Source: Bacteroidota bacterium (lineage in GTDB: Bacteria; Bacteroidota; Ignavibacteria; Kapaibacteriales; UBA961). Taken from it: a DNA stretch of 64,000 nt. The notes under the pieces are model-generated. The model ran no database searches. It was given only the letters and a program-made list of their open reading frames with translations, and was not told where the DNA came from. Each line of letters begins with the position of its first letter. Position 1 is the first letter of the stretch. Position numbers and translations under genes: made by a program. Below are positions 8,238 through 53,392 of the stretch, piece after piece. The stretch covers positions 3,539 to 67,538 of the forward strand of contig JBEEPK010000002.1 in the NCBI GenBank assembly GCA_041191145.1. Reading direction: 5' to 3'.

Positions 8238-9425
8238 TTATGAGATGATTTGTTTCAAACTATGAAAAATATCCATGGGAGAAATATCGCGAATGCAAGT
8301 GAATGCCTTATCTGTGCCTTCAAATTGACATGATGCGGGTTTTGGAGAAAAATAGAAGCATGGACTGCATGATACATCTCTTCTCGCAACAACTGCTTTG
8401 GGATTATTCCAAGGTGCTGTATGCACATGACTTGTATAACCAAAAATTGCGATCATTGGTAACTGTAATGCCGCCGCACAATGCATGAGACCTGAATCAT
8501 TGGAAATGAATGCTTTGCAATGATTCATAATTGCCAAACTTTTGGTGAGAGTCGGAGCTTGAACAATCTCTATTCTTGCTGTTGGATGACTATTCCGAAT
8601 CATTCGGTAAATATTTTCATTCAAAGCTTGTTCTTCAGGTCCACCAAAGAGTAGAATATTCATTCCTAAAACTGAGCTTGCCTTGGCACATAATTGGGCA
8701 TAATGTTCGGGGTTCCATCGCTTATTGATTTGATTCTTAACGATTGCTGATCCGGCATGAATTCCAAGCAGGGAAGAGTCTTTATTAAAATCATGTTTTG
8801 CAAGCCATTCCACAGCATAGTCTTGATCTTCTTTTGTTATGTGAAGTGACATCGGAGGGAGTATTTCAGGAATGCTAGCACCAAGTGTTGATGCAATGCG
8901 AATATTCTCTTCACAATTATGTAATTCATTCTTTTCATCAAGAAGAATATTGTTTAATGTATTGAGTTGAGAAATTGAATTATGAAGATATCGATGACCA
9001 ATTCTATGCTTTGAACCAATCAGGCGAGCTACGATTGCATAGTGGAATCTATTTGCCGGAAATCCGGTGATAGTATGCGAATATCTTCCGCGCAATGAAA
9101 ACAAAAATGTTAGCGTTTTGAATGGAGATTCTTTGAGAAAATTCCAAAAGAGTACTTTGGAGATATTGGGATTCGTGGAAAAGATATCTGCAATACCCTT
9201 GAACATTGTGAGAATTTCTATCTCATTATCTGGGAATGATTTTTTTAGGATTTTCAATGCAGGTGTGAACATCAAGGCATCACCAATGCCGGATAAAGCA
9301 AGAATGAGTATTCGATTTCCCGGTTTGATTTGTGATCTGATATTCTCTTTCAAAAGTGATGTATCATTTATGCTCACATGCAGTGAATTGCTTGAGAGAA
9401 TAGTGAAATCTGTGATTGTCTGCAT
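8238..9425 (-). CDS. Glycosyltransferase family 9 (ADP-heptose:LPS heptosyltransferase-like)
   Basis: N-terminal 'ILILALSGIGDALMFTPALKILKK' and C-terminal 'SNDSGLMHCAAAL' motifs of GT9. Confidence 0.75.
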   Translation of the reverse strand: MQTITDFTILSSNSLHVSINDTSLLKENIRSQIKPGNRILILALSGIGDALMFTPALKILKKSFPDNEIEILTMFKGIADIFSTNPNISKVLFWNFLKESPFKTLTFLFSLRGRYSHTITGFPANRFHYAIVARLIGSKHRIGHRYLHNSISQLNTLNNILLDEKNELHNCEENIRIASTLGASIPEILPPMSLHITKEDQDYAVEWLAKHDFNKDSSLLGIHAGSAIVKNQINKRWNPEHYAQLCAKASSVLGMNILLFGGPEEQALNENIYRMIRNSHPTARIEIVQAPTLTKSLAIMNHCKAFISNDSGLMHCAAALQLPMIAIFGYTSHVHTAPWNNPKAVVARRDVSCSPCFYFSPKPASCQFEGTDKAFTCIRDISPMDIFHSLKQIIS

Positions 9426-25545: not shown

Positions 25546-26028
25546 ATGTCATCCGGTCCAGTATACATGACCCGCGAAGGTGTTGCGAAAATTGAAGATG
25601 AAATAAAGCAACTCAAGGGAAAGGGAAGAAAGGAAATTGCCGAGAAGATTGCTTATGCACGCTCACATGGTGATTTATCTGAGAATGCCGATTATGATGC
25701 CGCAAAGCATGAGCAGGAATTGCTTGAGATGCGCATTTCAAGATTGGAATCTACTTTGGTAAAAGTGCAAGTTATTGATCCGAAGGACCTTCCAAATGAT
25801 AAAATATATATTCTTTCGAAAGTGAAACTAAAGAACAATAAAACCAGTAAAATGGTTGAATATACATTGGTAAGTGCAGAAGAAGCAGATTTTCAAGCCA
25901 ATAAATTGGCTGTTTCTTCACCTTTGGGTAAAGCATTACTTGGAAAGACAATTGGTGATAAGGTCATAACAAAGGTTCCAGCAGGCGATATCGAGTATGA
26001 AATACTTGAAATTGGAAAAATTGATTGA
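25546..26028 (+). CDS. greA: Transcription elongation factor GreA
   Basis: 'HGDLSENADYDAAK' coiled-coil acidic finger. The internal ATG is preferred to the track start. Confidence 0.85.
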   Translation: MSSGPVYMTREGVAKIEDEIKQLKGKGRKEIAEKIAYARSHGDLSENADYDAAKHEQELLEMRISRLESTLVKVQVIDPKDLPNDKIYILSKVKLKNNKTSKMVEYTLVSAEEADFQANKLAVSSPLGKALLGKTIGDKVITKVPAGDIEYEILEIGKID

Positions 26029-26057
26029 ATTAAACCAAATGGATAGAAACATTGTCT

Positions 26058-26091
26058 AATTCCCGTGATTTCACATGGGAATTTTTTTTTG
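26058..26091 (+). terminator. Rho-independent terminator after greA
   Basis: Hairpin TTCCCGTG-attt-CACATGGGAA (with one G·U pair) followed by a T9 run. Confidence 0.6.
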
Positions 26092-26102
26092 TCGGAGATT
26101 GA

Positions 26103-26657
26103 GTGAAGCCTGAACAAGACATATTAGATCTCCTTGAAAAAGGTAAAACTCATGAGGTTATGTCCATTCTGATGTCGAATTATAAACGATTCGTACATTC
26201 AACGGCAATGCGCTATCTGAAAGATGATGATGATGCAAAAGATGTAACTCAAGAAGTTTTTATTAAAGCTTATAACTCCCTTGATTATTTTCGAGGTGAT
26301 TCCAAGATTCAGACATGGCTCTATGCAATTACTAGAAATCTTTGTTTGAATGCTCTTGACAAAAAGAAAAGAAAAGGAAATGTGATTCATTTGGAAACTT
26401 TGGAAGTATTGTCCGATGAAAGATCAGATAGACTTGTGAATGAATCTGAGTTCTCAAAGTTCTTTAAGGAATGCATGTCCATATTACCTGAAAAACAAAG
26501 AGAAACATTCATATTACGACATGTTGAAGAATTGACATATGAAGAAATCTCCGAAATGCTTGGCACCAGCATTGGTGGACTCAAAGCAAACTATTATCAA
26601 GCAGTACAAAAATTGTCTCAATATCTTTCTTCCAAAAAAGAAGGGAACATACAATGA
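26103..26657 (+). CDS. ECF-subfamily RNA polymerase sigma-70 factor
   Basis: Region 2 'DAKDVTQEVFIKAYNSLDYF' and region 4 'LTYEEISEMLGTSIGGLK'. GTG start. Confidence 0.85.
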   Translation: MKPEQDILDLLEKGKTHEVMSILMSNYKRFVHSTAMRYLKDDDDAKDVTQEVFIKAYNSLDYFRGDSKIQTWLYAITRNLCLNALDKKKRKGNVIHLETLEVLSDERSDRLVNESEFSKFFKECMSILPEKQRETFILRHVEELTYEEISEMLGTSIGGLKANYYQAVQKLSQYLSSKKEGNIQ

Positions 26658-27208
26658 ATAATCATGAAAATATCGAATATTTGTTACCTGATTATATCAA
26701 TGGTACTTTGTCTGAGGATGATATCTATATTGTGGAACAAGCTCTTGCTTCTTCCAAAGACTTGCAACAAAAACACGATGAATTTGTACAAGTATTTAGT
26801 GTATTGAAGCAAGACAATATCATTCAATTGATGAATGATGAGGTAGAATTCGTGGATGTAATCATTCCTCTTAAAGCAAAGAAGAAGATGATAATCCCAA
26901 AGATCATCATCGGAACCACAACTTCAATAGCAGCTTGTTTATTGCTTTGGATTGGTATTAATAACCAAATATCCAGCAATGTTCAAAATGGTGATGTCAA
27001 GAAAATACCTACTATTGAATTGGCTGAGACAATCGATGAATTTACTCCTTTGGAATTACAATCAGAGGATGTGGAAGAAGTGATATTGGATGAACTTCTT
27101 ACATTGTATGTAAGTGATATCGAATCAGGTAAAGAGATCAATCCGCTACTCGAAAATGAAATCACAAATTATCTTTTGCAGGAGAGTTCAGATGAAGAAG
27201 TATTATAA
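26654..27208 (+). CDS. Anti-sigma factor (membrane-spanning)
   Basis: Overlaps the sigma gene by 4 bp. N-terminal 'YLLPDYINGTLSEDD' anti-sigma motif and a central TM helix. Confidence 0.65.
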   Translation: MNNHENIEYLLPDYINGTLSEDDIYIVEQALASSKDLQQKHDEFVQVFSVLKQDNIIQLMNDEVEFVDVIIPLKAKKKMIIPKIIIGTTTSIAACLLLWIGINNQISSNVQNGDVKKIPTIELAETIDEFTPLELQSEDVEEVILDELLTLYVSDIESGKEINPLLENEITNYLLQESSDEEVL

Positions 27209-27644
27209 ACTCATCTGCTTTGCAACACTTTTCATGTTCTTAGGTACTGCTTCGCTTTGTAGTCAAAATCCGGAAAAAATGCGTGAGAGATTGAAGACTT
27301 ATAAAAAGATCATGTTGATGGAAAAACTCAATATGAGCGAAGAACAATCTATTAAGTTTTTTACAAGATACACCGAGTATGAGGAATTCATAAAAAAGGC
27401 CAAAAATGAATTGGATCAATCCGTGGATTTGCTTGAGCAAGTTGTGGAATCAGGGAAGGCAGAAAATGAAAAAGCAATCCAATTGGTCTTTGAGAAAGAC
27501 ATTGCATTGAAAAAAGTCATCATTGAACGAATCAAAGCAATGAAGAATGTACTCAGTGAGAAGCAATATGGGAAGTATGTTCTCCTTGAATATCGCTTAT
27601 TGGATAAAGTTAAAGATGCAGTGAAAAAAAGACGAAAGAAGTAA
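27192..27644 (+). CDS. Periplasmic Spy/CpxP-like (LTXXQ-motif) protein
   Basis: Signal peptide MKKYYKLICFATLFMFLGTASLCS. Helical K/E-rich protein with LxxxQ-type repeats. Third gene of the sigma/anti-sigma module. Confidence 0.5.
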   Translation: MKKYYKLICFATLFMFLGTASLCSQNPEKMRERLKTYKKIMLMEKLNMSEEQSIKFFTRYTEYEEFIKKAKNELDQSVDLLEQVVESGKAENEKAIQLVFEKDIALKKVIIERIKAMKNVLSEKQYGKYVLLEYRLLDKVKDAVKKRRKK

Positions 27645-27653
27645 TGCTATTAA

Positions 27654-28643
27654 TTAAAATTTCAGATAAAGTGAGTCAGAATTATAGAAAAATATATCCT
27701 TTTTTAGCTTAGTATATCTTTGTATATAATGTTCTTTATAATTGAAAGAAGACTCACTTAGTTCATATTGTTTTTTTATGAGAGGGATATAAGTAGAAGG
27801 GTGATAATATTCTAATGTATATTGTTTCAGATATCTTCCTTGATGACCATATTGTGAATAATCATAAATGCACTTTGACTTTGGATTTATATTTAAGGGA
27901 AATTGTTGAAAATCAATAAATCTATAGTATGTACCTAATATTGAAATATAAGTATACCAAGATCCAAATCTATCATGTGTTTCATATACTTGAAAATCTC
28001 TTATCCCATCTAGATTGATGTCTGTATAAATGATTCTGATTGTCTGAGTTAAATCATAATTTAGATAATTGAATTGTTTCTGTTTTATGAACAGTAACAA
28101 TTCTTGCAGAAAATTCTGACCTTTTGGAATTCTGATATTTTGATTTATCCCAAAATCAACAAGAGTAGTTTCAGGGGGGCTGAAGATTGAATTATCATAT
28201 AATATATTGCTTACAAAGACAATCTTTCCGCTTTCTTTATTGTAAACAAGGATTCTCGTTCCATCATACTGAATATATTCATCATTGTAATAATCCTCAT
28301 CTTTCCCTTCAGCAACAACTTTTTTGAGTGTAGGTTTGCGATATGCAGAAATGATATAGGATTGTGCTAGCAATGAATCATGTACAGGGAATATTGCCGA
28401 GTTATGAAAGAATTGATTTTGTATGTTAACCAGATGTGAAGTTAAATCGCAATTCTGGAATTGATACAAATTCAATAATGAAGGAAATACATATGCTTCA
28501 ACTCGCAAGTGTTTATATACATTGTTATGATATTCGAGAAGTGATGATATATTAGTTGTGCACTTATTCATTGTATTTGACTCTATACATGAATAGGTAA
28601 TAAATGAAAATATAGATACAAATAAAAGAATAAAATATTTCAT
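27654..28643 (-). CDS. Hypothetical secreted Tyr/Asn-rich protein
   Basis: Signal peptide. Strongly AT-rich coding sequence. No recognisable motif. Confidence 0.4.
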   Translation of the reverse strand: MKYFILLFVSIFSFITYSCIESNTMNKCTTNISSLLEYHNNVYKHLRVEAYVFPSLLNLYQFQNCDLTSHLVNIQNQFFHNSAIFPVHDSLLAQSYIISAYRKPTLKKVVAEGKDEDYYNDEYIQYDGTRILVYNKESGKIVFVSNILYDNSIFSPPETTLVDFGINQNIRIPKGQNFLQELLLFIKQKQFNYLNYDLTQTIRIIYTDINLDGIRDFQVYETHDRFGSWYTYISILGTYYRFIDFQQFPLNINPKSKCIYDYSQYGHQGRYLKQYTLEYYHPSTYIPLIKKQYELSESSFNYKEHYIQRYTKLKKDIFFYNSDSLYLKF

Positions 28644-28655
28644 GACATTATGTTC

Positions 28656-29660
28656 TTAATTCATGATTTTTGTACCAATCTCAGTCCCACCCCATTCAAT
28701 TACAGTATATCCATTGCGCTTTAATGAGGGTAATTCTTGTTCTTTGATAGGGTTATTAGGTATTTCATGACTATACTCCATAAAGACTCTTATGAGTGTC
28801 TCTGGTTTTGGGGTGATTTCCAAGAATGAAGTATTTCGAATGTTATCATTTATTGAAAAGTGAATAAAACATTCCTCTTTACTCATCATTCTTGGTGCCC
28901 AAAAAGTAATGAAGTCATTAGATTCTAATTTATTTAGACCAAATTGATATAATACTTTCTCTAAAAATGGGATTACATCTTTTGCTTTTATAATGAATCC
29001 TTCATTGAATATATCTCTTGCTAAGCTTTTGTATGATATTCCCTCCCAAAACAAATATCTATGTTCTGTCGAGTCATTTAGGTTTAAAAGTAAACCATCA
29101 GTCTTTGCAAGGACTTTCCAACCATCCAAATATTCCGGATAAGTAAATGTTATCTCACCCAGATAAGTATGCTTGACTTCTGTAATCTGATCTTGTTCGG
29201 GGTAAATGTAGATGACAGGTTTTTTATACATATGTCTTATTGGTAAAGTATCGCAATGAGATATATCAACCATACATTTCGAATTGTTCTTATATGGTAT
29301 TTGGATTTTTGTAGAGCAAGGTGATGAATAGTTCGAATGGGTAATCACCATGATATGACTGTATTGTTGTAATTGTTCTGCATTCAGAGTAACAGAAAAT
29401 TTGGGTTTACTTCTCGACTGGATGAAAAGTGATGAATTATGTTCTGACTCATCATAAAGATAGATGTCATAACTTCCTGTAAATGCAACAGTATCCGTGC
29501 CATGTATTGAATGCACAAGCATTCCAAGCACTTTATGAATGGATTTTGATGATTGTCCATATCCTGACATTGTAGCACTTAGAATCAATAGTAGTATTGT
29601 CAATGATATATGCAGAGTATTGCCACGTTTATTTTGAATCCAATTTAATGATGTATGCAT
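28656..29660 (-). CDS. Hypothetical secreted protein
   Basis: Signal/TM N-terminus. AT-rich. No recognisable motif. Confidence 0.4.
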   Translation of the reverse strand: MHTSLNWIQNKRGNTLHISLTILLLILSATMSGYGQSSKSIHKVLGMLVHSIHGTDTVAFTGSYDIYLYDESEHNSSLFIQSRSKPKFSVTLNAEQLQQYSHIMVITHSNYSSPCSTKIQIPYKNNSKCMVDISHCDTLPIRHMYKKPVIYIYPEQDQITEVKHTYLGEITFTYPEYLDGWKVLAKTDGLLLNLNDSTEHRYLFWEGISYKSLARDIFNEGFIIKAKDVIPFLEKVLYQFGLNKLESNDFITFWAPRMMSKEECFIHFSINDNIRNTSFLEITPKPETLIRVFMEYSHEIPNNPIKEQELPSLKRNGYTVIEWGGTEIGTKIMN

Positions 29661-29799
29661 ATGTAATTCCTATAGACACAAAGATTCAATATTTCAAGTT
29701 CAGACTGACAATGATACTGGAGTACATATACTCATACATTATGATATGAAAAATATAAATGAGCTAGTTTCTGTGAAAGCAGTCAACTTGATTGTTATA

Positions 29800-31617
29800 T
29801 CATTTACCAATATATCTTGCTTCTTCAAGTAATTTTAAATATTCGCCTCTATATCCATCCTCATCATCTCCAAGTCCTGAATTTCCAAGTTCCTTTGCTT
29901 GTTTCCAATTTGCACTACCTTTAAAGGGACTTTCTCTCAATAACATTCCAAATTCAGCTACTGAACATATGAAACGAAAATCATCGCTCACATTTAAGAT
30001 ATTTTTTGGTGTATTGTATACTATCTCTTCAAGAGCATATTCACTATTGTTTTCAGGTTTTTTGTACTTAACATTAATTGTAAGGAGTTCATAATTTGGA
30101 TTATAGCTAATTGGATTTATTGGTAAAAAGTATTTCTTACTTTTTGGACTTGCACAATTACCTAGAATTATTTCGTACAATGCTGTGACACTATGACCAG
30201 AACCCATTTCGCCTGCATCAATCCTTGAATCATCAAAATCTGAGTTTTTTAAACCCCTATTTTCATATCCTATCTGTCTATAACTTGAAACAAAACTTGG
30301 ATTAAATTCTAATTGTGCTTTCACATCTTTCGCAACAGTAAGTAAAGTACCGCGAAATTCTTCGACAAGCACTTTTTTAGCTTCAATCACATTATCAATA
30401 TGGAAATAATTTCCATTTCCTTTGTCAGCAATAATTTCGAGTTTATTATCCTTCAAGTTGTCTAATCCAAATCCTAAAACTGTAATTTCAATCTTATCTT
30501 TACGTAATCGTTCCATCATCCGCTGCATTTCTCCATCACTATTGATCCCCATATTGAAATCGCCATCTGTAGCAACAATTACGCGATTATTTGTCTTGCT
30601 ATTCAAGTTCTTTCTTAGCAATTGATAAGCAGCTTCAATTCCCGGTGCTCCAGGAGTTGCTCCATCTGCTTGCAATTCCTGTATCTTTTGAGAAATATTC
30701 CTCCTATCACTGCAACTTATAGGTTCAAGTACTATGTTGGCTGTACTTCCACTATATGTAACTATCGAGACAACATCATCTTCTCGCAGTTTGTTAAGTA
30801 ATAAATTAAATGCCCTTTTGGCTAATGGTAGCTTCACTTTTGAATCCATTGAACCTGATATATCAATAAGAAGAACCACATTATTCGAAGGACTAATATT
30901 CGTATTGACTTTCTTACTCTTTAAACCTACTTTTAACAATAGTGCATCCTTATTCCATGGACATTTGGTCAATTCAGTATTGAGCATGATATCTTGATTA
31001 TTCTCAGGTTCAGGGTAATCATATGGAAAGTAATTTATGAATTCTTCTATTCTCACAGCGTCAATTGGTAGCCTACGACCTGAATTGATAAAATGTCTTG
31101 CAATGCTGTAGGAAGCTTTATCTACGTCTATTGCAAAGGTTGAAAGTGGTTCTTGTATGACTACATTAAATCCATTCTCATTAATTGGCGAAAAATCATA
31201 TGTAAAGTAACCGCCATAGGAAATTGGAGCAGAAACAGAATGAGCAGTCATAGAAGCACTCCGGGCTTCACTCGCAGAATATATTTGTGGAGAAATCAAT
31301 GTATCGTATGTTCTGTCTGGATTAGAGGATTGCAAATATATCCGCCCTTTAAAATTCGATTTGGCAATGAATGAGTAATTGTTAAATCCCTTAGCAGAAA
31401 CAGTAATTTTATCACCATTTCTTGCATTTATTAAAAAATATCCATTGGATTGAGTTATAACAATATCTTGATTCATTGTGTTTTTGATTGTTGCTGAAGC
31501 AATCGCTGTGCTATCTTTGGCATTTAATACAAATCCATCAATAATCACTCTTGAAGCTTTTTGTGCATGTATTACACATGTTGCACAAATCAATACCGTG
31601 TAAATAATAAAACGCAT
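29800..31617 (-). CDS. von Willebrand factor type A domain protein (YfbK-like, secreted)
   Basis: Signal peptide. Carboxypeptidase-regulatory-like N-domain. MIDAS motif 'VVLLIDISGSMD'. Long YfbK-type C-terminal region. Confidence 0.75.
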   Translation of the reverse strand: MRFIIYTVLICATCVIHAQKASRVIIDGFVLNAKDSTAIASATIKNTMNQDIVITQSNGYFLINARNGDKITVSAKGFNNYSFIAKSNFKGRIYLQSSNPDRTYDTLISPQIYSASEARSASMTAHSVSAPISYGGYFTYDFSPINENGFNVVIQEPLSTFAIDVDKASYSIARHFINSGRRLPIDAVRIEEFINYFPYDYPEPENNQDIMLNTELTKCPWNKDALLLKVGLKSKKVNTNISPSNNVVLLIDISGSMDSKVKLPLAKRAFNLLLNKLREDDVVSIVTYSGSTANIVLEPISCSDRRNISQKIQELQADGATPGAPGIEAAYQLLRKNLNSKTNNRVIVATDGDFNMGINSDGEMQRMMERLRKDKIEITVLGFGLDNLKDNKLEIIADKGNGNYFHIDNVIEAKKVLVEEFRGTLLTVAKDVKAQLEFNPSFVSSYRQIGYENRGLKNSDFDDSRIDAGEMGSGHSVTALYEIILGNCASPKSKKYFLPINPISYNPNYELLTINVKYKKPENNSEYALEEIVYNTPKNILNVSDDFRFICSVAEFGMLLRESPFKGSANWKQAKELGNSGLGDDEDGYRGEYLKLLEEARYIGK

Positions 31618-31745
31618 ACACTCTCCTAAAAAATAACCCTAACAAGGTACATTACTTTATATTGTAAATATTTTAAGTCTTTGATGAAAAAGGGGATGTC
31701 CCAGTCAATAAATCACAAACTAGTACTTAAATAGTAAAATGAAAA

Positions 31746-31772
31746 CAAAAAATCCCCATAAGGGGATTTTTT
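31746..31772. terminator. Bidirectional rho-independent terminator
   Basis: A6-ATCCCC-ataa-GGGGAT-T6, immediately 3' of the rsmI-like stop. Confidence 0.7.
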
Positions 31773-31775
31773 CAA

Positions 31776-33515
31776 TTAGTACTTTCTTCTTGGTGGCTTC
31801 ATTCCTGATGAGGAATCGGATGTTCCCTTATACTTCTTTTTATCTTTTGAGTCAAAAGAAGGTTTTCCACCGAACTTCCTGTCTCTACCTCCACTTCTCT
31901 CGGAATATGAATCTCCATCGCGTTTTCTGAATCCACCGGAATCTCCATCGCGTTTTCTGAATCCGCCGGAATCGCCATCGCGCTTTTTGTATCCACCAGA
32001 ATCTCCATCGCGCTTTTTGTATCCACCGGAATCTCCATCGCGTTTTCTGTAACCACTGGAATCTCCATCGCGTTTTCTGTATCCACCGGAATCTCCATCG
32101 CGCTTTTTGTAACCCCCTGAATCACCATCGCGTTTTCTGAATCCGCCGGAATCGCCATCACGCTTTTTGTATCCGCCGGAATCGCCATCGCGCTTTTTGT
32201 ATCCACCGGAATCACCATCGCGTTTTCTGTATCCGCCAGAATCACCATCGCGTTTTCTGAATCCACCGGAATCGCCATCGCGCTTTTTGTATCCACCGGA
32301 ATCACCATCGCGTTTTCTGTATCCGCCAGAATCACCATCGCGTTTTCTGAATCCACCGGAATCACCATCGCGTTTTCTGAATCCGCCGGAATCGCCATCG
32401 CGTTTTCTGAATCCACCGGAATCACCATCGCGTTTTCTGAATCCGCCGGAATCGCCATCACGCTTTTTGTATCCACCGGAATCACCATCGCGCTTTCTGA
32501 ATCCGCCGGAATCGCCTTCACGTTTTCTGTATCCGCCGGAATCGCCATCACGCTTTCTGTATCCACCGGAATCGCCTTCACGTTTTCTGTATCCGCCGGA
32601 ATCGCCTTCGTGCTTTTTAAAATCGACCGATTCTTCATCACTATTGCTATAGCTATCTAACTCATCTTCGTGGATATCAATATCTTGCTTTATAGGCAAT
32701 GAATCTTCATCAGCTTCAAAAAGCTCATCATGAGTTTCTTCTGAAACTTTCAACTTTTTAGAATCGCTGATAGCAATGCGTTCTTTCTTCTTTTCGAAAT
32801 TTGACAATACGCTAAGAAGTGTTCTTCCGGGATGACCTTCAAACACTATCACGAATTCACCCTTGAAAGGTGTATCGGTAAATGCTTGATGAAGTTCTGA
32901 AAATGTGCCATAATGATGATGTTCAAAGGACATTGTTAGATTACATCCGATATAAGCTTTACGATCGGGCATCACTTTTGCAGCTGCTTCAAGGATTTGT
33001 TTTAGTCGATAGGGAGTTTCAAGAAGAACAGTTGTTCTTGGTTCCAGTGCAAGCGCTTGCATTTCCATTAATCTGTCTTCTGTGGTTCTGCTCAAGAAAC
33101 CTGCGCAGGTAAAAACATCAGATTTAAAACCACTTCGTACTAGTGCTGTCATAATAGAACTTGGACCGGGAACTACGACGATATTGATATTCGCATCCAA
33201 TGCCAGATTCAAAAAGTACCTACCTGGATCGGCAAATATGGGAGTTCCTGCATCTGAGATCAAAGCAAATGATTCTCCATTTTGGAGTCTTTCGATCAAT
33301 TGAGGAGCATATTCATCTTCATTATGCTCATTGAGTTGTTCGAGATTTGCACTGAAGTTATGTCTTTTTGCAAGCAAAGCTCCAATTTTCTCTTCTTCAC
33401 AAATAACTGTATCCACTTTCTTCAGTACTTTCAAAGCACGAAGTGAGATGTCATCCTCATTACCAATTGGTGTTGAAACGATGTATAATACCGACTGTTC
33501 TTGCTTCTTCCGCAT
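31776..33515 (-). CDS. rsmI: 16S rRNA (cytidine1402-2'-O)-methyltransferase RsmI fused to a ~340-aa acidic linker plus a tail of ~24 decapeptide repeats
   Basis: The N-terminal ~230 aa have the tetrapyrrole-methylase fold motifs ('LYIVSTPIGNEDDIS', 'SDAGTPIFADPG'). One continuous ORF then continues through (D/E)GDSGG(Y/F)(R/K)KR x ~24. Confidence 0.75.
   Translation of the reverse strand: MRKKQEQSVLYIVSTPIGNEDDISLRALKVLKKVDTVICEEEKIGALLAKRHNFSANLEQLNEHNEDEYAPQLIERLQNGESFALISDAGTPIFADPGRYFLNLALDANINIVVVPGPSSIMTALVRSGFKSDVFTCAGFLSRTTEDRLMEMQALALEPRTTVLLETPYRLKQILEAAAKVMPDRKAYIGCNLTMSFEHHHYGTFSELHQAFTDTPFKGEFVIVFEGHPGRTLLSVLSNFEKKKERIAISDSKKLKVSEETHDELFEADEDSLPIKQDIDIHEDELDSYSNSDEESVDFKKHEGDSGGYRKREGDSGGYRKRDGDSGGYRKREGDSGGFRKRDGDSGGYKKRDGDSGGFRKRDGDSGGFRKRDGDSGGFRKRDGDSGGFRKRDGDSGGYRKRDGDSGGYKKRDGDSGGFRKRDGDSGGYRKRDGDSGGYKKRDGDSGGYKKRDGDSGGFRKRDGDSGGYKKRDGDSGGYRKRDGDSSGYRKRDGDSGGYKKRDGDSGGYKKRDGDSGGFRKRDGDSGGFRKRDGDSYSERSGGRDRKFGGKPSFDSKDKKKYKGTSDSSSGMKPPRRKY
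31890..32630. repeat. Tandem 30-bp coding repeat (~24 copies) inside the rsmI-like gene
   Basis: Near-identical units 'CCATCGCG(T/C)TTT(C/T)TG(A/T)ATCC(A/G)CC(G/A)GAATC(T/G/A)' read directly from the sequence. They cause the shadow ORFs in the other frames. Confidence 0.85.
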
Positions 33516-46946: not shown

Positions 46947-47720
46947 TCACCATTCTGCTGAAGGATCAATTCGGAATACTTCTGTCATTTCTTCAAGCAA
47001 TGGTTGTAGATGATCTGAATGAAAGCCTTTGCGACCACCATATACAGGAGTAATGGTCTCACGAGAAGGAATAGTTAAACCTGCTTTCTCGCAAATTGCT
47101 TGAATTCTTTCATGCCATGCTTTTTCAAGTTCTTGCTCACCATTGAAAATCTTCTGTTCAATCAAAATGTGTTCGGATTCGGAAGGTTCGAAAATACCTA
47201 GAGCCAAAGGATAACACTCATTTAATGCACTCTGCATTCTTGATTTACTTTCTTCATTACCTTGTGCACCTAATTGAATAATCCAAGTATCAGCATGAAA
47301 TACGTGATATTTTATTTCGCCACGGATCTTGGTTGACAATTTTGCTAAAGGTTGATAAGAACTTCGTTCAAGCATTTCAAAACGCAATAGTTCTGCGCTA
47401 TCAAAAAGAAAATGTCTCATTAAACTGAAATCATATCCACCAATAGGATATTCCACAAAGTGACAACAAGTATAATCTTTCTCATTTCTCGTGAATGCAG
47501 TGATATCAGGCTCCGGTTCACCTAATTGTTCAAGCAAAGTATAGAGAGCCAATGCATGGCCTATCTTATCTTGAGCAATGGATGAAAATGCGATGTCTTC
47601 TTCCAAAATAGGTCCTAATCCTGTCCATTCTGAATTTCTATGAGCAATGATGAGTGCATCATCTGCCATGTGATAGAGAAGGTCTTTGAGTGCTTTGATT
47701 GATGTTTGATCTTGTGTCAT
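46947..47720 (-). CDS. PaaC-like ferritin-fold protein (phenylacetic acid catabolic protein family), stand-alone
   Basis: 'LIIAHRNSEWTGLGPILEEDIAFSSIAQDKIGHA' resembles the PaaC/PaaA family signature. The internal start 'MTQDQ' is preferred. Confidence 0.5.
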   Translation of the reverse strand: MTQDQTSIKALKDLLYHMADDALIIAHRNSEWTGLGPILEEDIAFSSIAQDKIGHALALYTLLEQLGEPEPDITAFTRNEKDYTCCHFVEYPIGGYDFSLMRHFLFDSAELLRFEMLERSSYQPLAKLSTKIRGEIKYHVFHADTWIIQLGAQGNEESKSRMQSALNECYPLALGIFEPSESEHILIEQKIFNGEQELEKAWHERIQAICEKAGLTIPSRETITPVYGGRKGFHSDHLQPLLEEMTEVFRIDPSAEW

Positions 47721-47850
47721 TGTTATATCTCCGATTGAAATCACATACAAACATACAATAGTTACTGCTATGCATTGATATATCCAATTCCACTGCTTGT
47801 TCATTAGGTAATCATGAGTATATTTGGAGGTTAAAAGGAAGCATTACAAC

Positions 47851-48666
47851 ATGGTAAAAAATCTACTATTTCTGGTCATCAGTCTTTTTGCACTCTGTGG
47901 AGTGATGGTACAAGCCGATTTGACTGAAATTTTGAGCTTTGGTGCACCCCCTTCTTCAACAGGTGCCCCCGGTGAAATTACTTGTGCTGAATCTGGTTGT
48001 CATGATGATGGACCAATTCCACAGAATCATGTATCTCATACACTGAGTTTAGAAACGAGAAATGGTGTTTTCATTCCCGGTGATACTGCATTGATCACTA
48101 TTCATGTACAAGACCCTGAAGTTCAGAGATTCGGTTTTCAATTGACTGCAATAAATGAAAATGGAAAGGCATTGGGAGAATTTTTGATTACAGATTCTAT
48201 GCATACTCAGATGATGCAAAATCATGTGAATCTGACGGATAGAGAATATGTGACATATACAAAAGCGGGAACACTTGCACAGCAAAGAGGGAAGCATTCT
48301 TGGACTTTTAAATGGATCATACCACAAACACAGTCTAGTTTTGCCAGGTTTTACCTTGCAACAGTTTCAGCGAATAATGACAATAGAGATAAAGGTGATA
48401 GAGTATTTCTGAGAGACACTATCATTTCTCTTCAGAAAGTAAATTCTGTGCTTGATAATAAAGAAATCTCGATTGAGCAAAAAGGTAAAAACTTGATCGT
48501 GCATCAAGAATTCAATCCCAAACCGATAAAAGTCTACACAATATTAGGTGATATCTACAGAGAATATCCCGGTAATTATGTTCAATCAAGTATTGATCTT
48601 ACTGATTTTCCAAATGGATTGTATGTATTGAAAACCGGTAATATTCTTCATTCATTTATTCCTTGA
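47851..48666 (+). CDS. Secreted protein with N-terminal 'STGAPGEITCAESGCH' motif and T9SS-like C-terminal sorting domain (paralog A)
   Basis: Signal peptide MVKNLLFLVISLFALCGVMVQA. Shared motifs with the downstream paralog. C-terminal 'LTDFPNGLYVLKTGNILHSFIP' matches a Por_Secre_tail pattern. Confidence 0.6.
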   Translation: MVKNLLFLVISLFALCGVMVQADLTEILSFGAPPSSTGAPGEITCAESGCHDDGPIPQNHVSHTLSLETRNGVFIPGDTALITIHVQDPEVQRFGFQLTAINENGKALGEFLITDSMHTQMMQNHVNLTDREYVTYTKAGTLAQQRGKHSWTFKWIIPQTQSSFARFYLATVSANNDNRDKGDRVFLRDTIISLQKVNSVLDNKEISIEQKGKNLIVHQEFNPKPIKVYTILGDIYREYPGNYVQSSIDLTDFPNGLYVLKTGNILHSFIP

Positions 48667-48672
48667 CATACA

Positions 48673-49545
48673 ATGAAATCATCAATATTACTCTCAATCA
48701 TCATGTGTTTTGTTTTTGGAAGCATTGCTTCAGCAATTTCTGATGAAAAAAATGGTGAATATACCTTTAAATCATCTGGATCACATGAAAGTAGTACAGG
48801 TGCACCCGGTGATCGCACATGTGCTCAGTCAGGCTGTCATGAAATGAGCGAAATAATCAATGATGATACAACGAATACTTTGATCTTTTCTGATGGTGAT
48901 GGATTGTATGGAAATGCGATGGAAGGAATTAGACTGAGAGTACGCAAAGAAGATAAAGTCAAATTTGGATTTCAAATCGTATGTCTTGATTCTCTCAATA
49001 AAAATGCTGGTTCATGGGTTCTGTTGAATAAAGAAAGAGTTCAAACTCAAGGTGCAGATTTTTTCTTGGTAAGTGCTTTTGGAAGATCTTATGTAACCCA
49101 TACCTATAAAGGTAACTTGGCTCAAGTACCAGGTGAAATATACTGGGATTTTGCTTGGTTGCCCCCTGCAAATGGATATCAGGGAAAAGTCACTTTTTAT
49201 GTCATGAGCAATTGTGCAAACAATGACAACACGAATGGTGGTGATACTTTTTATGCCTCAAAGCATACATTACGACATATGTCAAGCATGACATCAATTG
49301 AAGATGATGGACAAATCCCTTGTAAAATTGGGCATAACACATGGTTCTTACCAATGAATCTTCATCATGAGATTACACAAATTCGATGCATTGATATAAA
49401 GGGTAGAGTCCAACTCATTAACTGGAATATCATTGGTGATCAGGGATTCGAAATTACATTGCCATCAACCGATTTGAGAGGATTTGTTACTCTCATCATT
49501 GAATTCGAGAATGGGATAACACTGAAAAAACACGTAATTATCTGA
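48673..49545 (+). CDS. Secreted protein with N-terminal 'STGAPGDRTCAQSGCH' motif and T9SS-like C-terminal sorting domain (paralog B)
   Basis: Signal peptide. Shares the 'SSTGAPG..TCA.SGCH', 'FGFQ', 'THTYKGNLAQ' and 'ANNDN..GD' blocks with paralog A. C-terminal 'GFVTLIIEFENGITLKKHVII' tail. Confidence 0.6.
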   Translation: MKSSILLSIIMCFVFGSIASAISDEKNGEYTFKSSGSHESSTGAPGDRTCAQSGCHEMSEIINDDTTNTLIFSDGDGLYGNAMEGIRLRVRKEDKVKFGFQIVCLDSLNKNAGSWVLLNKERVQTQGADFFLVSAFGRSYVTHTYKGNLAQVPGEIYWDFAWLPPANGYQGKVTFYVMSNCANNDNTNGGDTFYASKHTLRHMSSMTSIEDDGQIPCKIGHNTWFLPMNLHHEITQIRCIDIKGRVQLINWNIIGDQGFEITLPSTDLRGFVTLIIEFENGITLKKHVII

Positions 49546-49627
49546 ATTTGATTCTGATACTGTAAGGAATTCAATACTTTTGTGTCTTACTCTTTGGCGG
49601 ACGCCTTGTCCGTATTGAGAACCACGG

Positions 49628-49987
49628 ATGCAAGACATTATGGCGGACTCAGAAGTGCATACAATCAAAGAAGTTAGCTTGATTGTTGATGAAGAACAAC
49701 ATGTTCTTCGTTATTGGGAAAGAGAATTTGCTTTTCTCAATCCCCAGAAAAATGAAGCAGGAAATAGGATGTACACTTCAGTTGATTTGGCAATTGTCAA
49801 GGAATTGAAGCGATTGATCAGAACGGAAAGGAAAACCATACAGGAAGCAAGGAAAGCTTTTCTTGAACAATATCCCGATGGCATTGTAGAAATACCAAAA
49901 GTTAGCAAGGTTCAATCTCAAGGTAATTCTGATTTGTCTCAAATACAATCTGAATTAGAAGAGATTATCAAAAAGCTCAAAACCTAA
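49628..49987 (+). CDS. MerR-family transcriptional regulator
   Basis: HTH 'HTIKEVSLIVDEEQHVLRYWEREF' followed by a coiled-coil. Confidence 0.6.
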   Translation: MQDIMADSEVHTIKEVSLIVDEEQHVLRYWEREFAFLNPQKNEAGNRMYTSVDLAIVKELKRLIRTERKTIQEARKAFLEQYPDGIVEIPKVSKVQSQGNSDLSQIQSELEEIIKKLKT

Positions 49988-50037: not shown

Positions 50038-51054
50038 ATGCGCAATATGCTCAAGTATGTCGCAATCCCTATTGCAAGTTATATGATGATGTCTTTTTCG
50101 ACATTTGCGCAACAGCGCACATATGACTTGAAAACAGTAGGAAAGCATGATGATGAAGTTCTCGGTGTATTTGTCAATGGAGACAATACACGATTTGCAA
50201 CTTCTAGTTTGGATGAAAGCATAAAAATTTGGTCAATACCTGAAGGGAAGGATTTGATCACCATCAAAGGTCACCTTGGTCATGTCAATAATATTTCATT
50301 TTCCGGTGATGACAAGCAAATTGCTAGTGCAAGCACTGATCGTACAGTAAGAGTATGGGATGTTGCAACAGGCACACAGCAATATGTACTCACAGGACAT
50401 ACAGCAGAAGTAATTGGCGTATATTTTAGTCCTAAAAATGATTATATCGCTAGTACTAGTTTTGATCGAACCGTAAAATTGTGGGACACCAAACTTCGTA
50501 CGGAAGTCAAGACTTTACGCGGTCATACTGATAAAACAAATGATGTTGCGTATAGTTATGATGGACAATATCTTGCTTCATGCAGTGATGATAAAACAAT
50601 CAAAATATGGAGTACAGACATTAACTCAAAAGAGGCATTATTGACACTGACAGGACATGATACTCAAGTATTAACAGTCCTTTACAGTTTTGATTCCAAA
50701 AGACTTGCTTCTGCTGATGAAAAAGGCGTTGTTAAAATATGGGAAATGCCATCTGGCACTTTGCTCCGTACAATCAATGCTCATAATGAAATCGTTCAGT
50801 CTGTTTCTTGGGCAGAAGACAATCGTACTATTGTTACTGCAAGCCTTGACAAGTTCGTTAAGCTTTGGAATAGTGATACAGGTGAAAATTTGATGTCGAT
50901 GGATGTAGGTTCTGATATCTGGGGTGTTGATTTAACCAGTAGTGCCGATCATATCATGGTTGGTTGCGCCGATGGTACTGTCAAAATGTTGGTCGAGAAA
51001 AAAGAAGCAATCAAAGGCAAAGAAAAACCCAAAGGCAAAGGAGGTAAAAAATGA
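50038..51054 (+). CDS. Signal-peptide WD40-repeat beta-propeller protein with Lys-rich C-terminus
   Basis: Cleavable signal 'MMMSFSTFAQQ'. Seven WD repeats ('GH.D.V..V.FSPDG...AS.S.D.T.K.W'). Confidence 0.75.
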   Translation: MRNMLKYVAIPIASYMMMSFSTFAQQRTYDLKTVGKHDDEVLGVFVNGDNTRFATSSLDESIKIWSIPEGKDLITIKGHLGHVNNISFSGDDKQIASASTDRTVRVWDVATGTQQYVLTGHTAEVIGVYFSPKNDYIASTSFDRTVKLWDTKLRTEVKTLRGHTDKTNDVAYSYDGQYLASCSDDKTIKIWSTDINSKEALLTLTGHDTQVLTVLYSFDSKRLASADEKGVVKIWEMPSGTLLRTINAHNEIVQSVSWAEDNRTIVTASLDKFVKLWNSDTGENLMSMDVGSDIWGVDLTSSADHIMVGCADGTVKMLVEKKEAIKGKEKPKGKGGKK

Positions 51055-51755
51055 AATATCTATCGTATCTCCTGCTTTCAAGTTTATTCTTGATTTTTAG
51101 CTTTAATTCTGTTTCTGCTCAGCAAATCATGAGTGTTACCGGAGCTGTAATAGATCAGACGACTCGAAATCCTGTCAGCATAATCGTGTCATTCTATGAT
51201 AAAAACAATAAAAAAATGGGTTCTTCAAAAAGCAACTCTGCAACAGGTTATTATCTTGTAACAGGTTTGAAGCAAGGCGAAACCTATAAAGTGCAACTTG
51301 AATCTCCTGATTATTTCAAAGATGAATTTGAAGTTACGCTTCCCGTGTCCAAGAAATATGCTGATGTTTCTCGTGACTTTGCAGTTAAGCCTCTAGCTAA
51401 AGGCACAAAGATCCTATTGGAAGTGGCTCCATTTGAATTGAAGAAGTCTAAACTTCGAGTGGGTGCTGAAGATTATCTGGCAGATGTAAAAAAAATGATG
51501 ATCTTAAATCCAGGTGTTACAGTTGAAATTCAGACATATCCAGATGCCGAAGGTGACCCAGCGGTGAATGAGACATTCACCATGGAAAGAGCTCAAGCAA
51601 TCAAGAAGTATTTGGTAGATAATGGGGTACGCGAGCAGAAAATAGTACTCAAAGCTTCAGGTCAGACTGATAGCATTAATCCACCTCCAAAGTATAAAAC
51701 AGCGAAAGGAAAACGCTATATCGGACCAATTTATATAGTAGTTACCAAGGTATGA
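51051..51755 (+). CDS. OmpA-like/carboxypeptidase-regulatory-like domain protein, secreted
   Basis: Signal peptide. N-terminal CarbopepD_reg-like beta-sandwich ('VTGAVIDQTTRNPV'). Degenerate OmpA_C-like C-terminal region ('ERAQAIKKYLVDNGV'). Overlaps the WD40 gene by 4 bp. Confidence 0.5.
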   Translation: MKYLSYLLLSSLFLIFSFNSVSAQQIMSVTGAVIDQTTRNPVSIIVSFYDKNNKKMGSSKSNSATGYYLVTGLKQGETYKVQLESPDYFKDEFEVTLPVSKKYADVSRDFAVKPLAKGTKILLEVAPFELKKSKLRVGAEDYLADVKKMMILNPGVTVEIQTYPDAEGDPAVNETFTMERAQAIKKYLVDNGVREQKIVLKASGQTDSINPPPKYKTAKGKRYIGPIYIVVTKV

Positions 51756-51832: not shown

Positions 51833-53392
51833 ATGAGCAATTATTCAGATAGAAGAGATTTTCTTAAAGTGCTGATCGGGGGAACCGGTGCAGCATTTCT
51901 CGCACTGCACGGTTGTGGAGATGACACATCTAAAATACAAAGGGTTGCCGGTCCTAATCCTGAGACCATACTCAAAAGACAAAGATTCTCCATTGCACAT
52001 CAATATGTGCGTGATAAAAGTATAGATGGGGCAAAGAATAATAATGTACCATTGCAATGTGATGTAGTAATAATCGGAGCAGGAGCTTCTGGTTTGGCAG
52101 CTGCATTGACATTACATGATGCGGGTTACGATGTGTTATTGCTTGAAAATGAAAGTCAAGTAGGAGGTGCAGGAATTCATGGAAGCATGCATGATATAAA
52201 ATATCCATATGGCTCTGTTTATTTTGTTGATTACTCGGATGATATTAAAAAGATCTGTGCAAGAACAGGCTTGCAACCATTGCCCGCACCTGAAGATGCG
52301 GTATTGCATCAAGGACAATTGATTGGTAATTTTTGGTCAGATGCATCTCTTCAATCTTTAGAAGTATCTCAAATTGAAAAAGATGGTATGAAGCTATTCA
52401 GGGATGTGCTTTTAAATGATCAAAAGGTCCCTTCCTATCCTTTGCCTCGAGTATTGTCGAAATATGAAGCAGAATTGGATGCACAATCTGCAAAGGATTA
52501 TCTGTCTCAATTTTCTTCCCCATATCTTGAAACATTGCTTGATCTTTATTCAAGATCTTCAATGGGTGGTGCATTAAATGAATCCAATGCATATTGCTTA
52601 TTAAACTTTTATTCTTCTGAGATTGGAAGCGAGTTTGGAAAAGATCGCTTTACTTTTCCTGGTGGTATGAATGCACTGTACAAAGCAATTGCTACTCTGA
52701 TCCCACAGGAAAAGGTGATGACAAATCATTTGGCATTTGCAATTGTAAATACAAAAGATGGCGTTGAAGTATCCTGTGTGAGTGATGACAATGAAATCAG
52801 AAAAGTGAAGGCAAAAAAAATCATTATGACAGGTCAAAAACATGTTTCTGCTTTTATGATTCAAGATTTACCAGACGCTCAAAGATCAGCGATGATGTCA
52901 ATGCAATATCCTCCATATGCCACCATGCATTTTACATGTGAAGAAGAACTCTTTCCGAATCATATCATGGATGTATGGACTCCCGAGGCTACCCCATTTT
53001 GTACTGATATCATTTGTTCAAATGCAATGCAAGGATCTAAGAAGAAGTATGATCATCATGTGTACTCAATTTTTGGTGCAATGCCACAACAGCAAAGAAG
53101 TGTTTTGTTGGATGATCAAGCCATGGCCAAACATGGTGTAGACATTATTTCAAAAACAATGAAGTATCTTGGCAAGTCGCTTGATTCAATTTCTCAAATT
53201 GAAGTATTTGGATGGGGACATGCCCTTGCAATACCATTTCCCGGCTCACATAATGGTCCGGCTCAATTGGCTTCTGCCAGACATGGAAATATCTTCTTCG
53301 GTGCATCTGACAATGATGCCGCATCTAGCGTAGAGAATGCACTTGCAAATGGTTTCGCTTCAGGTAGGGAGGTCATTCAGTCATTGAATTAA
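51833..53392 (+). CDS. Tat-exported FAD-dependent oxidoreductase (amine-oxidase/phytoene-desaturase-like), probable lipoprotein
   Basis: Twin-arginine signal 'RRDFLKVLIGGTGAAFLALHGC'. Dinucleotide-binding 'VVIIGAGASGLAAAL...LLENESQVGG'. Confidence 0.65.
   Translation: MSNYSDRRDFLKVLIGGTGAAFLALHGCGDDTSKIQRVAGPNPETILKRQRFSIAHQYVRDKSIDGAKNNNVPLQCDVVIIGAGASGLAAALTLHDAGYDVLLLENESQVGGAGIHGSMHDIKYPYGSVYFVDYSDDIKKICARTGLQPLPAPEDAVLHQGQLIGNFWSDASLQSLEVSQIEKDGMKLFRDVLLNDQKVPSYPLPRVLSKYEAELDAQSAKDYLSQFSSPYLETLLDLYSRSSMGGALNESNAYCLLNFYSSEIGSEFGKDRFTFPGGMNALYKAIATLIPQEKVMTNHLAFAIVNTKDGVEVSCVSDDNEIRKVKAKKIIMTGQKHVSAFMIQDLPDAQRSAMMSMQYPPYATMHFTCEEELFPNHIMDVWTPEATPFCTDIICSNAMQGSKKKYDHHVYSIFGAMPQQQRSVLLDDQAMAKHGVDIISKTMKYLGKSLDSISQIEVFGWGHALAIPFPGSHNGPAQLASARHGNIFFGASDNDAASSVENALANGFASGREVIQSLN

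Follow-up and report, generated by a model that had tools for sequence, protein, structure and literature searches.

Two adjacent genes, which we call A and B, lie in a window of 64,000 nucleotides (the whole stretch of DNA analysed: positions 3,539 to 67,538 of contig JBEEPK010000002.1, GenBank assembly GCA_041191145.1) from a Bacteroidota bacterium of the Kapaibacteriales lineage. Both encode related proteins that are predicted to be secreted and that carry two cysteines and a histidine in an arrangement resembling a heme-attachment site. The genes and their signal peptides are as follows, with positions counted from the first letter of the window.

47851..48666, + strand: gene A, 271 amino acids (aa), an A-type (first-position) choice-of-anchor V / Reeler-like secreted protein; open reading frame (ORF) from ATG.
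47851..47916, + strand: predicted signal peptide of A, aa 1-22, predicted cleavage between VQA and D; sequence inspection, predicted N-terminal helix 2-22.
48673..49545, + strand: gene B, 290 aa, a B-type (second-position) choice-of-anchor V / Reeler-like secreted protein; ORF.
48673..48735, + strand: predicted signal peptide of B, aa 1-21, predicted cleavage between ASA and I; sequence inspection, model helix 2-23.

The open frame of gene A begins at a TTG at 47824, and its orthologs are 271 aa long, as is the product from the ATG at 47851. The two genes lie on the same strand with 6 bp between the stop of A and the start of B, and no terminator-like site was found in the scanned span 47600-49800; co-transcription is thus likely. 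Signal peptides were assigned by sequence inspection together with predicted N-terminal helices. A lipoprotein nature of A was considered and rejected, since no lipobox precedes Cys16 (FALC). An earlier reading of the letters alone, the first-pass annotation, had described two adjacent genes for secreted, related proteins, and this description holds: both ORFs are present, both begin with a Sec signal peptide by inspection, and the proteins are 31% identical over 183 aa by BLASTP (E=5e-26), which is far beyond chance. Every conserved block that it quoted was also found in the two proteins. These are the Cys/His block (SSTGAPGEITCAESGCH in A, SSTGAPGDRTCAQSGCH in B), FGFQ in both, TYTKAGTLAQ in A and THTYKGNLAQ in B, and a fourth block (ANNDNRDKGDRVF in A, ANNDNTNGGDTFY in B). 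The product of gene B is 100% identical to family member P0049 and to a Joint Genome Institute (JGI) protein, and the closest named relatives of A and B come from metagenome-assembled genomes (MAGs) labelled Candidatus Kapaibacterium or Ignavibacteria(e).

The Cys/His block contains the sequence CAESGCH in A and CAQSGCH in B.

47953..48003, + strand: motif of A, S35-S-T-G-A-P-G-E-I-T-C45-A-E-S-G-C50-H51; columns (nearly) invariant in alignments A1, A2 and A5.
48784..48840, + strand: motif of B, H38-E-S-S-T-G-A-P-G-D-R-T-C50-A-Q-S-G-C55-H56; C50, C55 and H56 invariant in alignment A5.

This C-x4-C-H had been placed just after the signal-peptide cleavage site; it actually lies 23-29 residues into the mature chain of A and B. 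Its description as invariant was borne out for the residues, with a spacing that varies. Among the close homologs, 148 of 155 share the general form C-x(n)-C-H, and four without it are short (155-357 aa), at least three of them being apparent fragments. It was found in all of 143 further family representatives (143/143) and in every intact gene of the 88 loci that we collected, where the three motif-less cases were contig-end fragments or masked-N artefacts. The spacing n is 4 in the majority of sequences, and n = 2, 5, 6 and 8 are also found; whatever n is, the His always stands directly after the second Cys, and this holds across about 300 sequences that are no more than 30% identical. Members with a canonical CxxCH include P0044, P0048, P0259, P0270, P0287 and P0291, together with 17 genes in the loci. 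The locus search was seeded on STGAPG[ED]x[TN]C (an 8-sequence alignment subset), and the locus sample is therefore biased towards CX4CH-type members. For locus statistics, the 88 loci were de-replicated to 46 groups.

Documented heme-c motifs comprise CX2CH, CX3CH, CX4CH, CX11CH, CX15CH and CX17CH, with the proximal ligand following the second Cys (PMC11492766). The His of this family likewise always follows the second Cys while n varies. We tentatively favour the reading that A and B are mono-heme c-type cytochromes with a Reeler fold that the cell displays on its surface, and hold it to be a little short of probable. The non-canonical heme-c or metal-binding site proposed in the first-pass annotation agrees with this behaviour of the motif, although redox activity or metal binding as such is unproven.

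The same annotation had found no family that it could name for these proteins, and here it was mistaken. Both exceed the 42-bit cutoff of the NCBIfam model NF041895, "choice-of-anchor V domain" (A, 71.1 bits; B, 69.6 bits), and homology to the Reeler domain emerged from a profile search of the PDB, from Foldseek and from hhalign. Against Pfam Reeler (PF02014, threshold 21 bits), A scores just under at 20.8 bits and B has no match; many homologs have a precomputed match to PF02014, and longer members score 22.8-30.2 bits. The related model NF041894 (MXAN_6652 family, MXYO-CTERM-anchored) was matched weakly, at 15.7-18.6 bits versus a cutoff of 200. AlphaFold2 models have a predicted local distance difference test (pLDDT) score of 85.2 for A and 87.6 for B. 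In Foldseek, the best single-domain PDB match of the A model is the human F-spondin Reeler domain (2zou/2zot/3coo), with a TM score of 0.6-0.69 normalised to the target and 18-20% identity. The whole chain of B retrieved generic two-Ig-domain proteins only, such as PapD-type chaperones, and was uninformative. When the family profile was compared with the whole PDB sequence set, the F-spondin Reeler domain provided the sole matches (three entries, E about 1.5e-4), and hhalign against vertebrate FRRS1 sequences gave a 90% probability (E 1.7e-6). Profile comparisons and predicted structures thus support homology between the bacterial domain and the eukaryotic Reeler domain of F-spondin and FRRS1.

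The family is large: at E <= 1e-3 it comprises 7,566 representatives, each standing for a cluster at 50% identity. In species-representative genomes it is found in the Bacteroidota (Chitinophagales, Saprospiraceae, Sphingobacteriaceae and Flavobacteriales) and also in Kapaibacteriota/Ignavibacteria, Chlorobiota and Acidobacteriota. As is typical of NF041895 proteins, which is how NCBI names the homologs, the head is N-terminal and the anchor behind it depends on the lineage: a type IX secretion system (T9SS) C-terminal domain in Bacteroidota and Kapaibacteriota, and TIG/FG-GAP/FN3/Ig stalks or a TIGR03437-type C-terminus in Acidobacteriota and others. The NF041895 model supplies a name only. 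Source annotations of members read "hypothetical protein" or give anchor names, and none says cytochrome. No published study of the bacterial family, its function, its cofactor or the A/B pairing was found in the paper library searched, which agrees with the earlier description of the family as uncharacterised; searches there for T9SS with multicopper oxidase, for CcsBA with CXXXXCH and for MXYO-CTERM returned nothing on the bacterial family. An iron-regulation paper that names "choice-of-anchor" proved to concern domain J, not V. The family is thus a named one without known function, and the behaviour of its motif, its A/B module and its copper link are new findings.

A number of features are common to the bacterial heads and the eukaryotic Reeler domains (PF02014: F-spondin, reelin, FRRS1/SDR2 and insect CG8399), namely the beta-sandwich fold, the extracellular and N-terminal location, and the blocks Y.PG, (R)FGF, aG.F, TQ, W..P and an (S/T)-H-T strand. 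The cysteines differ, however. The eukaryotic domains have a single N-terminal Cys, in "C-x2-M-x-P-x-H" in FRRS1, whereas the bacterial family has two Cys and a "CH". In the eukaryotic domains, as in the F-spondin structure, the N-terminal Cys forms a disulfide with a distant Cys that follows the "TQ" strand. Where FRRS1 has "LLTC" and F-spondin "MSNC", the bacterial sequences have no Cys, and so lack that long-range disulfide partner; mature A contains no Cys other than Cys45 and Cys50. That "GAP-x10-H" of the bacterial heads might correspond to "G(K/R)V-x10-H" of the eukaryotic domains was considered and dropped, since the hhalign register differs and sets the bacterial second Cys opposite the eukaryotic Cys.

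This comparison bears on a cofactor-less alternative, in which the two Cys would form a short disulfide that staples the N-terminal segment to the Reeler sandwich and replaces the eukaryotic long-range one. His, Tyr, Glu and Asp would then line a ligand surface, for glycan or mineral for example, and A and B would be lectin- or adhesin-like heads for adhesion or recognition. We consider this unlikely. It draws on the fold and profile matches to the F-spondin Reeler domain, which is cofactor-less and binds heparin, and insect Reeler proteins are described as pattern-recognition molecules. Loops closed by a disulfide naturally vary in length, and the exact number of two Cys in mature A fits as well. 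It leaves unexplained, though, why a His obligatorily follows the second Cys in all these sequences. The match to a characterised domain that carries no cofactor counts against a cofactor in A and B; yet bacterial members always retain the Cys and His. An adhesin with an internal Cys-Gln thioester (TED-like) was rejected, as it has a different fold and leaves two Cys and the His unexplained.

Behind the head, the AlphaFold models of A and B each show a C-terminal 7-stranded beta-sandwich.

48463..48663, + strand: C-terminal beta-sandwich of A, a putative divergent T9SS type-A C-terminal domain that stops before the reference's terminal stretch; hhalign, strands 206-269 in the model.
49321..49542, + strand: C-terminal beta-sandwich of B, a putative divergent T9SS type-A C-terminal domain; hhalign, seven strands 223-289 in the model.

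That both proteins end in a Por_Secre_tail-like domain, as first proposed, is correct at the level of profiles but not at the cutoffs of the hidden Markov models (HMMs). A falls below them (17.6 vs 27 bits for Pfam PF18962, 15.8 vs 23 for TIGRFAM TIGR04183) and B matches neither model. When compared by hhalign with bona fide T9SS C-terminal domains, the C-terminus of B (queried as a profile built from the final 80 residues of its orthologs) gave a 95% probability (E 2.5e-8, 72 columns) and that of A 91% (E 1.1e-6, 49 columns), with the match of A ending at column 71 of the 80-column reference. The B ortholog in locus L001 has a faint Por_Secre_tail match. A "T9SS-type" label is reasonable for both C-termini on this profile similarity, with the caveat of the truncated match for A.

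Pairing of the two genes is a property of the family. At 56 of the 88 loci, two family genes (once four) are adjacent on the same strand. In comparisons across the de-replicated locus groups, the best hit of a first gene was another first gene in 53/55 cases and that of a second gene another second gene in 51/55. Partners A and B are 28-38% identical, and orthologs in different groups 40-59%. A and B are two old orthologous subfamilies whose A-then-B order is kept across Kapaibacteriota and Bacteroidota, and similar gene pairs occur in Acidobacteriota. The duplication followed by diversification that was proposed for the pair stands insofar as the two genes are paralogs, but it was not a local event, as the conserved order across phyla indicates. 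The four-gene case (L023:6008-9116) has two outer genes that are B-type-like (292 and 295 aa, with G-x-H upstream) and two inner ones that are short A-type genes of 190 aa, nearly duplicates of each other; the module seems to have been re-duplicated locally here.

The two subfamilies differ systematically at a position about 86 residues after the CH, on a strand of the form R-x-Y-x-T-X-T.

48256..48258, + strand: Tyr136 of A, on strand R-x-Y-x-T-Y-T; A-type signature, candidate second (distal) ligand.
49099..49101, + strand: His143 of B, on strand R-x-Y-x-T-H-T; B-type signature, candidate second (distal) ligand.

Tyr occupies this position in 48/50 scorable first genes and His in 39/41 second genes; among 23 de-replicated B-type proteins, His is there in 96%. 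The Tyr136 position of A aligns with the "S-H-T" of FRRS1. Upstream of STGAP, A-type proteins have G-A-P, and B-type proteins have G-x-H in 29/31 scorable second genes (His38 in B of the window). Short genes (<230 aa) with no room for a B-like C-terminal domain make up 13/55 of the A-type genes, whereas B-type genes are never short. The fixed pairing, the systematic residue differences and the occurrence of short A-type but never short B-type genes suggest that A and B act together, possibly as a heterodimer with the sorting signal on B. The division into Tyr in A and His in B, like the fixed A-then-B module, has no explanation if the heads are cofactor-less.

Under the heme reading that we favour, A and B would be exported by Sec, as their signal peptides indicate, and a periplasmic cytochrome c synthase would attach heme covalently to Cys45 and Cys50 of A and to Cys50 and Cys55 of B. 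Judging from the motif, His51 in A and His56 in B would be the proximal ligands, with Tyr136 and His143 as the candidate distal ones. The heme would thus be His/Tyr-ligated in A and His/His-ligated in B, and the two would be expected to differ in redox potential. The C-terminal domains, on their profile similarity, would send the folded holo-proteins through the T9SS to the cell surface. There A and B might form a surface redox couple that serves extracytoplasmic oxidoreductases, of which gene neighbourhoods point to a T9SS-tailed multicopper oxidase in a copper-stress regulon as the most frequent in Bacteroidota. The sequences, models and loci directly show the motif with its invariance and variable spacing, the signal peptides, the fold, the A/B orthology and the neighbourhood statistics; heme attachment, axial ligands, heterodimerisation, T9SS export and the physiological partner are the parts of this model that we infer. 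Separate elements of it have precedents. In cytochrome f, a beta-sandwich cytochrome, the heme motif lies close to the N-terminus; the cytochromes c3 of Desulfovibrio have CX4CH motifs that read C-x-x-x-G-C-H; and MauG has a His/Tyr c-heme.

Family members of 440-1,058 aa have the head at the N-terminus, then Ig, PKD, FN3, TIG or FG-GAP repeats, and then an anchor, and a cytochrome, cupredoxin or other redox domain was never found fused in them. From this architecture, the head appears to be the distal, surface-displayed functional unit at the tip of a stalk. A multi-heme extracellular electron conduit was rejected for the family, as each protein has one motif and no second redox domain occurs in the long members; one cofactor held out on a long stalk could not belong to a wired conduit. 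Heads at the tip of Ig/PKD/FN3/TIG/FG-GAP stalks are adhesin-like, which fits the cofactor-less alternative, and a single head on a long stalk also suits a binding role such as that of a metal-binding protein.

The genes that surround the module were examined across the collected loci. A multicopper oxidase, often T9SS-tailed, is the most recurrent neighbour beyond synteny, found in 13 loci (6 of 46 groups) at positions -4 to +3. A genome of about 4,000 genes generally has 1-3 multicopper oxidases, so that <1% of random 14-kb windows would be expected to contain one. Measured against this rough expectation, 6 of 46 groups is a strong enrichment, and the association is far from universal. CusA/CusB-type resistance-nodulation-division (RND) efflux genes occur in 5 groups, and an AraC regulator with an N-terminal MxCxxC motif (HMA-AraC) in 4. 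Altogether, 9/46 groups (about 20%) have at least one copper or metal gene within 7 kb, and 37/46 have none. Same-strand clusters in the order HMA-AraC, thioredoxin-like T9SS protein, multicopper oxidase, A and B are found at L032, L041, L055 and L049, and a CPH-type (CopB-type) P1B ATPase lies directly upstream of the pair at L062. Met/His-rich, MxCxxC-motif, DUF3347, HMBD, Cys-rich and DUF305 proteins are encoded at L024, L032 and L004, and the L007 group has a cation diffusion facilitator (CDF) efflux pump at -1 and a cytochrome P460 at -3. At L048:3019-5108 (a Flavobacteriales MAG), two consecutive di-heme CCP/MauG genes lie directly downstream of the pair, a single case. In Chitinophagia, T9SS-tailed thioredoxin-fold proteins with CSPC/CGSC sites, by inspection, flank the pair, and a Thioredoxin_2/Omp28 T9SS protein flanks it in a second Kapaibacteriota clade. 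Genes for such proteins, assigned by inspection from a CSPC/CGSC/CGTC site and a GMPT cis-Pro-type loop, recur to one or both sides of the pair and beside the multicopper oxidase.

T9SS-tailed thioredoxin-fold genes: L032:8397-9188; L041:6031-6846; L055:4331-5131 and 8434-9210; L051:8420-9241; L022:276-1307.

These neighbourhoods raise a second alternative, the main competitor of the heme reading, in which the Reeler sandwich of the head binds copper or another thiophilic metal through a Cys2His(+His/Tyr) site. The ligands would come from Cys-x(n)-Cys-His and, in addition, from Tyr136 in A or from His143 and His38 in B. A and B would then be a surface or periplasmic copper chaperone or sponge, partnered by the T9SS-tailed multicopper oxidase, the thioredoxin-like proteins and Cus/CopB efflux. 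We consider this possible but somewhat unlikely. In its favour count the 9/46 groups with metal genes, the ordered clusters, the ATPase at L062, the metal-site proteins at L024 and L004 (Met/His-rich, MxCxxC-motif, Cys-rich and DUF305), the CDF pump of the L007 group, and the thioredoxin-fold proteins (CSPC/CGSC) that flank the pair in two phyla. Sco proteins, moreover, bind copper by Cys2His coordination. Like the small secreted beta-sandwich or thioredoxin-like proteins CopC, PCuAC, CusF and Sco of the cop/pco/cus systems, which stand beside multicopper oxidase and Cus-type efflux, A and B have Cys and His residues that are plausible copper ligands. However, no match to CopC, PCuAC, CusF, Sco or cupredoxins was obtained in Pfam/NCBIfam at E<=1, and neither the HMMs nor the signature motifs of the cop/pco/cus proteins fit A or B. 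Those systems also have no counterpart to the A/B pairing and T9SS display, and with an association in about 20% of groups, A and B resemble copper chaperones in context only. There are no metal genes near the pair in the window's lineage (Kapaibacteriota), as in the 37 groups above. Free thiols would have to persist on an aerobic cell surface without an obvious reductant, and a His fixed next to the second Cys with a Cys-Cys spacing of 2-8 is odd for a metal site that is preorganised, whereas heme c sites typically have this form. The copper alternative explains the copper islands better than heme does, and the fixed "CH" with variable Cys spacing less well. The cofactor-less alternative accounts for neither the copper nor the redox neighbours.

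For the heme reading we count the invariance of the motif, the existence of CxxCH members, the signal sequences in the members examined, the Tyr/His position, the fixed A/B order, and redox enzymes among the neighbours, namely the multicopper oxidase, cytochrome P460 and di-heme CCP/MauG. In ferric reductases, eukaryotic Reeler domains are found joined to heme domains (DOMON, cytochrome b561; PMC10691727). The CX4CH cytochromes (tetraheme c3) are comparable in their motif, CX4CH being an accepted heme motif (PMC11492766): A and B are exported and have C-x(2-8)-C-H with the His right after the second Cys. As in cytochrome f, a beta-sandwich carries the heme-type motif close to its mature N-terminus. 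A and B nonetheless show no sequence or profile similarity to any cytochrome family, their fold is that of Reeler and not of cytochrome f or class III, and they have one site per protein, unlike tetraheme c3. Overall, A and B resemble c-type cytochromes in motif and export only.

Several points weigh against this reading. Heme in A and B is a prediction from sequence rather than a demonstration. There is no similarity to cytochrome families in Pfam/NCBIfam, and the 50 best Foldseek PDB matches of either model include no cytochrome. The F-spondin Reeler domain, which among solved structures has the closest fold, is without cofactor, and the N-terminal segment (STGAP...C) is partly common to eukaryotic Reeler domains, which are unable to carry heme c. 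Spacings of n = 5, 6 and 8 fall outside the heme motifs established so far, and a permissive synthase might be required for them. The single heads on Ig/FN3/PKD stalks have no other heme that could wire them to the cell. No cytochrome c biogenesis gene (Ccm, CcsBA) was seen among the window ORFs scanned. Finally, copper handling (CusAB, CopB-type ATPase, HMA-AraC, HMBD, DUF305) gives the strongest signal in the neighbourhoods, and a copper-binding site explains such neighbourhoods equally well or better.

A broader proposal extends the heme reading to the whole family. The bacterial Reeler-like proteins would be an unrecognised fold class of c-type cytochromes that works as an obligate A/B pair (A His/Tyr, B His/His), is exported in the holo-form via the T9SS and, at the surface and in some cases on the tip of a long stalk, performs or assists copper or iron redox chemistry. 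By homology, the Reeler domain of the eukaryotic ferric/cupric reductases FRRS1/SDR2 and CG8399 would then descend from a cofactor-binding redox or metal domain and would not be just an adhesion module. We regard this combination as unlikely.

In the window's lineage the module lies in an order of genes that is conserved but sheds no light on its role: TonB-dependent receptor, adk, SRPBCC, tpiA and PaaC-like gene, then A and B, then MerR-like, WD40, OmpA-like and FAD (flavin adenine dinucleotide) protein genes. This synteny is kept even where protein A is only 48% identical. The PaaC-like gene (46947-47804, - strand), divergent from A, scores 229.9 bits against TIGR02158 (cutoff 133) and is stand-alone; in 13 loci a PaaC-like gene occupies position -1, and other paa genes are absent from the vicinity. 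Right after B lies a MerR-family gene (49628-49987, + strand, 119 aa), a possible regulator of the pair, which occupies +1 in 14 loci. It is unlikely to be a CueR-type copper sensor, as it has no Cys and its best matches, far below threshold, are the N-termini of CarH/MlrA. A copper type was likewise considered for the TonB-dependent receptor, which is closest to BtuB, every score being far below cutoff.

Further downstream, a WD40 beta-propeller gene (50038-51054, + strand) overlaps by 4 bp a gene for a CarboxypepD_reg + OmpA protein (51051-51755, + strand). These two resemble a split PorE, a T9SS component, at a weak 46 bits versus the cutoff of 600 of NF052230, and they are kept at +2/+3 of the pair in 12-13 Kapaibacteriota-type loci. 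The FAD amine-oxidase/phytoene-desaturase-like gene (51833-53392, + strand) has an N-terminal twin-arginine-type signal (RRDFLK), and this exported FAD protein is at +4 of the pair in Kapaibacteriota-type loci. Elsewhere in the window, positions 26001-32000 have a low GC content (0.32-0.35 vs about 0.40 elsewhere) and may be an island. This stretch contains three tandem ORFs of about 176-184 aa (26103-27644) and two ORFs of 329 and 334 aa (27654-29660) with no Pfam match, beside a vWA/YfbK protein. Among the collected loci, T9SS-tailed family genes at L042, L043, L071, L075 and L022 are on MAGs labelled Bifidobacteriaceae/Bifidobacterium, Heliomicrobium/Heliobacteriaceae or Chloroflexota; these labels are probably binning or labelling errors.

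If the motif binds heme, A and B would represent a new structural class of cytochrome c. We know of no cytochromes previously recognised as T9SS cargo, and they would then be the first; this would bear on the surface redox chemistry of soil and freshwater bacteria outside the Proteobacteria. Should the site bind copper instead, the pair would be a new component of Bacteroidota copper-homeostasis systems, which to our knowledge have been little studied. What the Reeler domain does in eukaryotic CYBDOM reductases is itself unknown (PMC10691727), and either outcome would provide a handle on the role of the homologous Reeler domain in animal ferric reductases. The family that A and B belong to is very widespread and experimentally tractable, and it combines a cofactor-like signature with a conserved two-gene logic and a link to copper.

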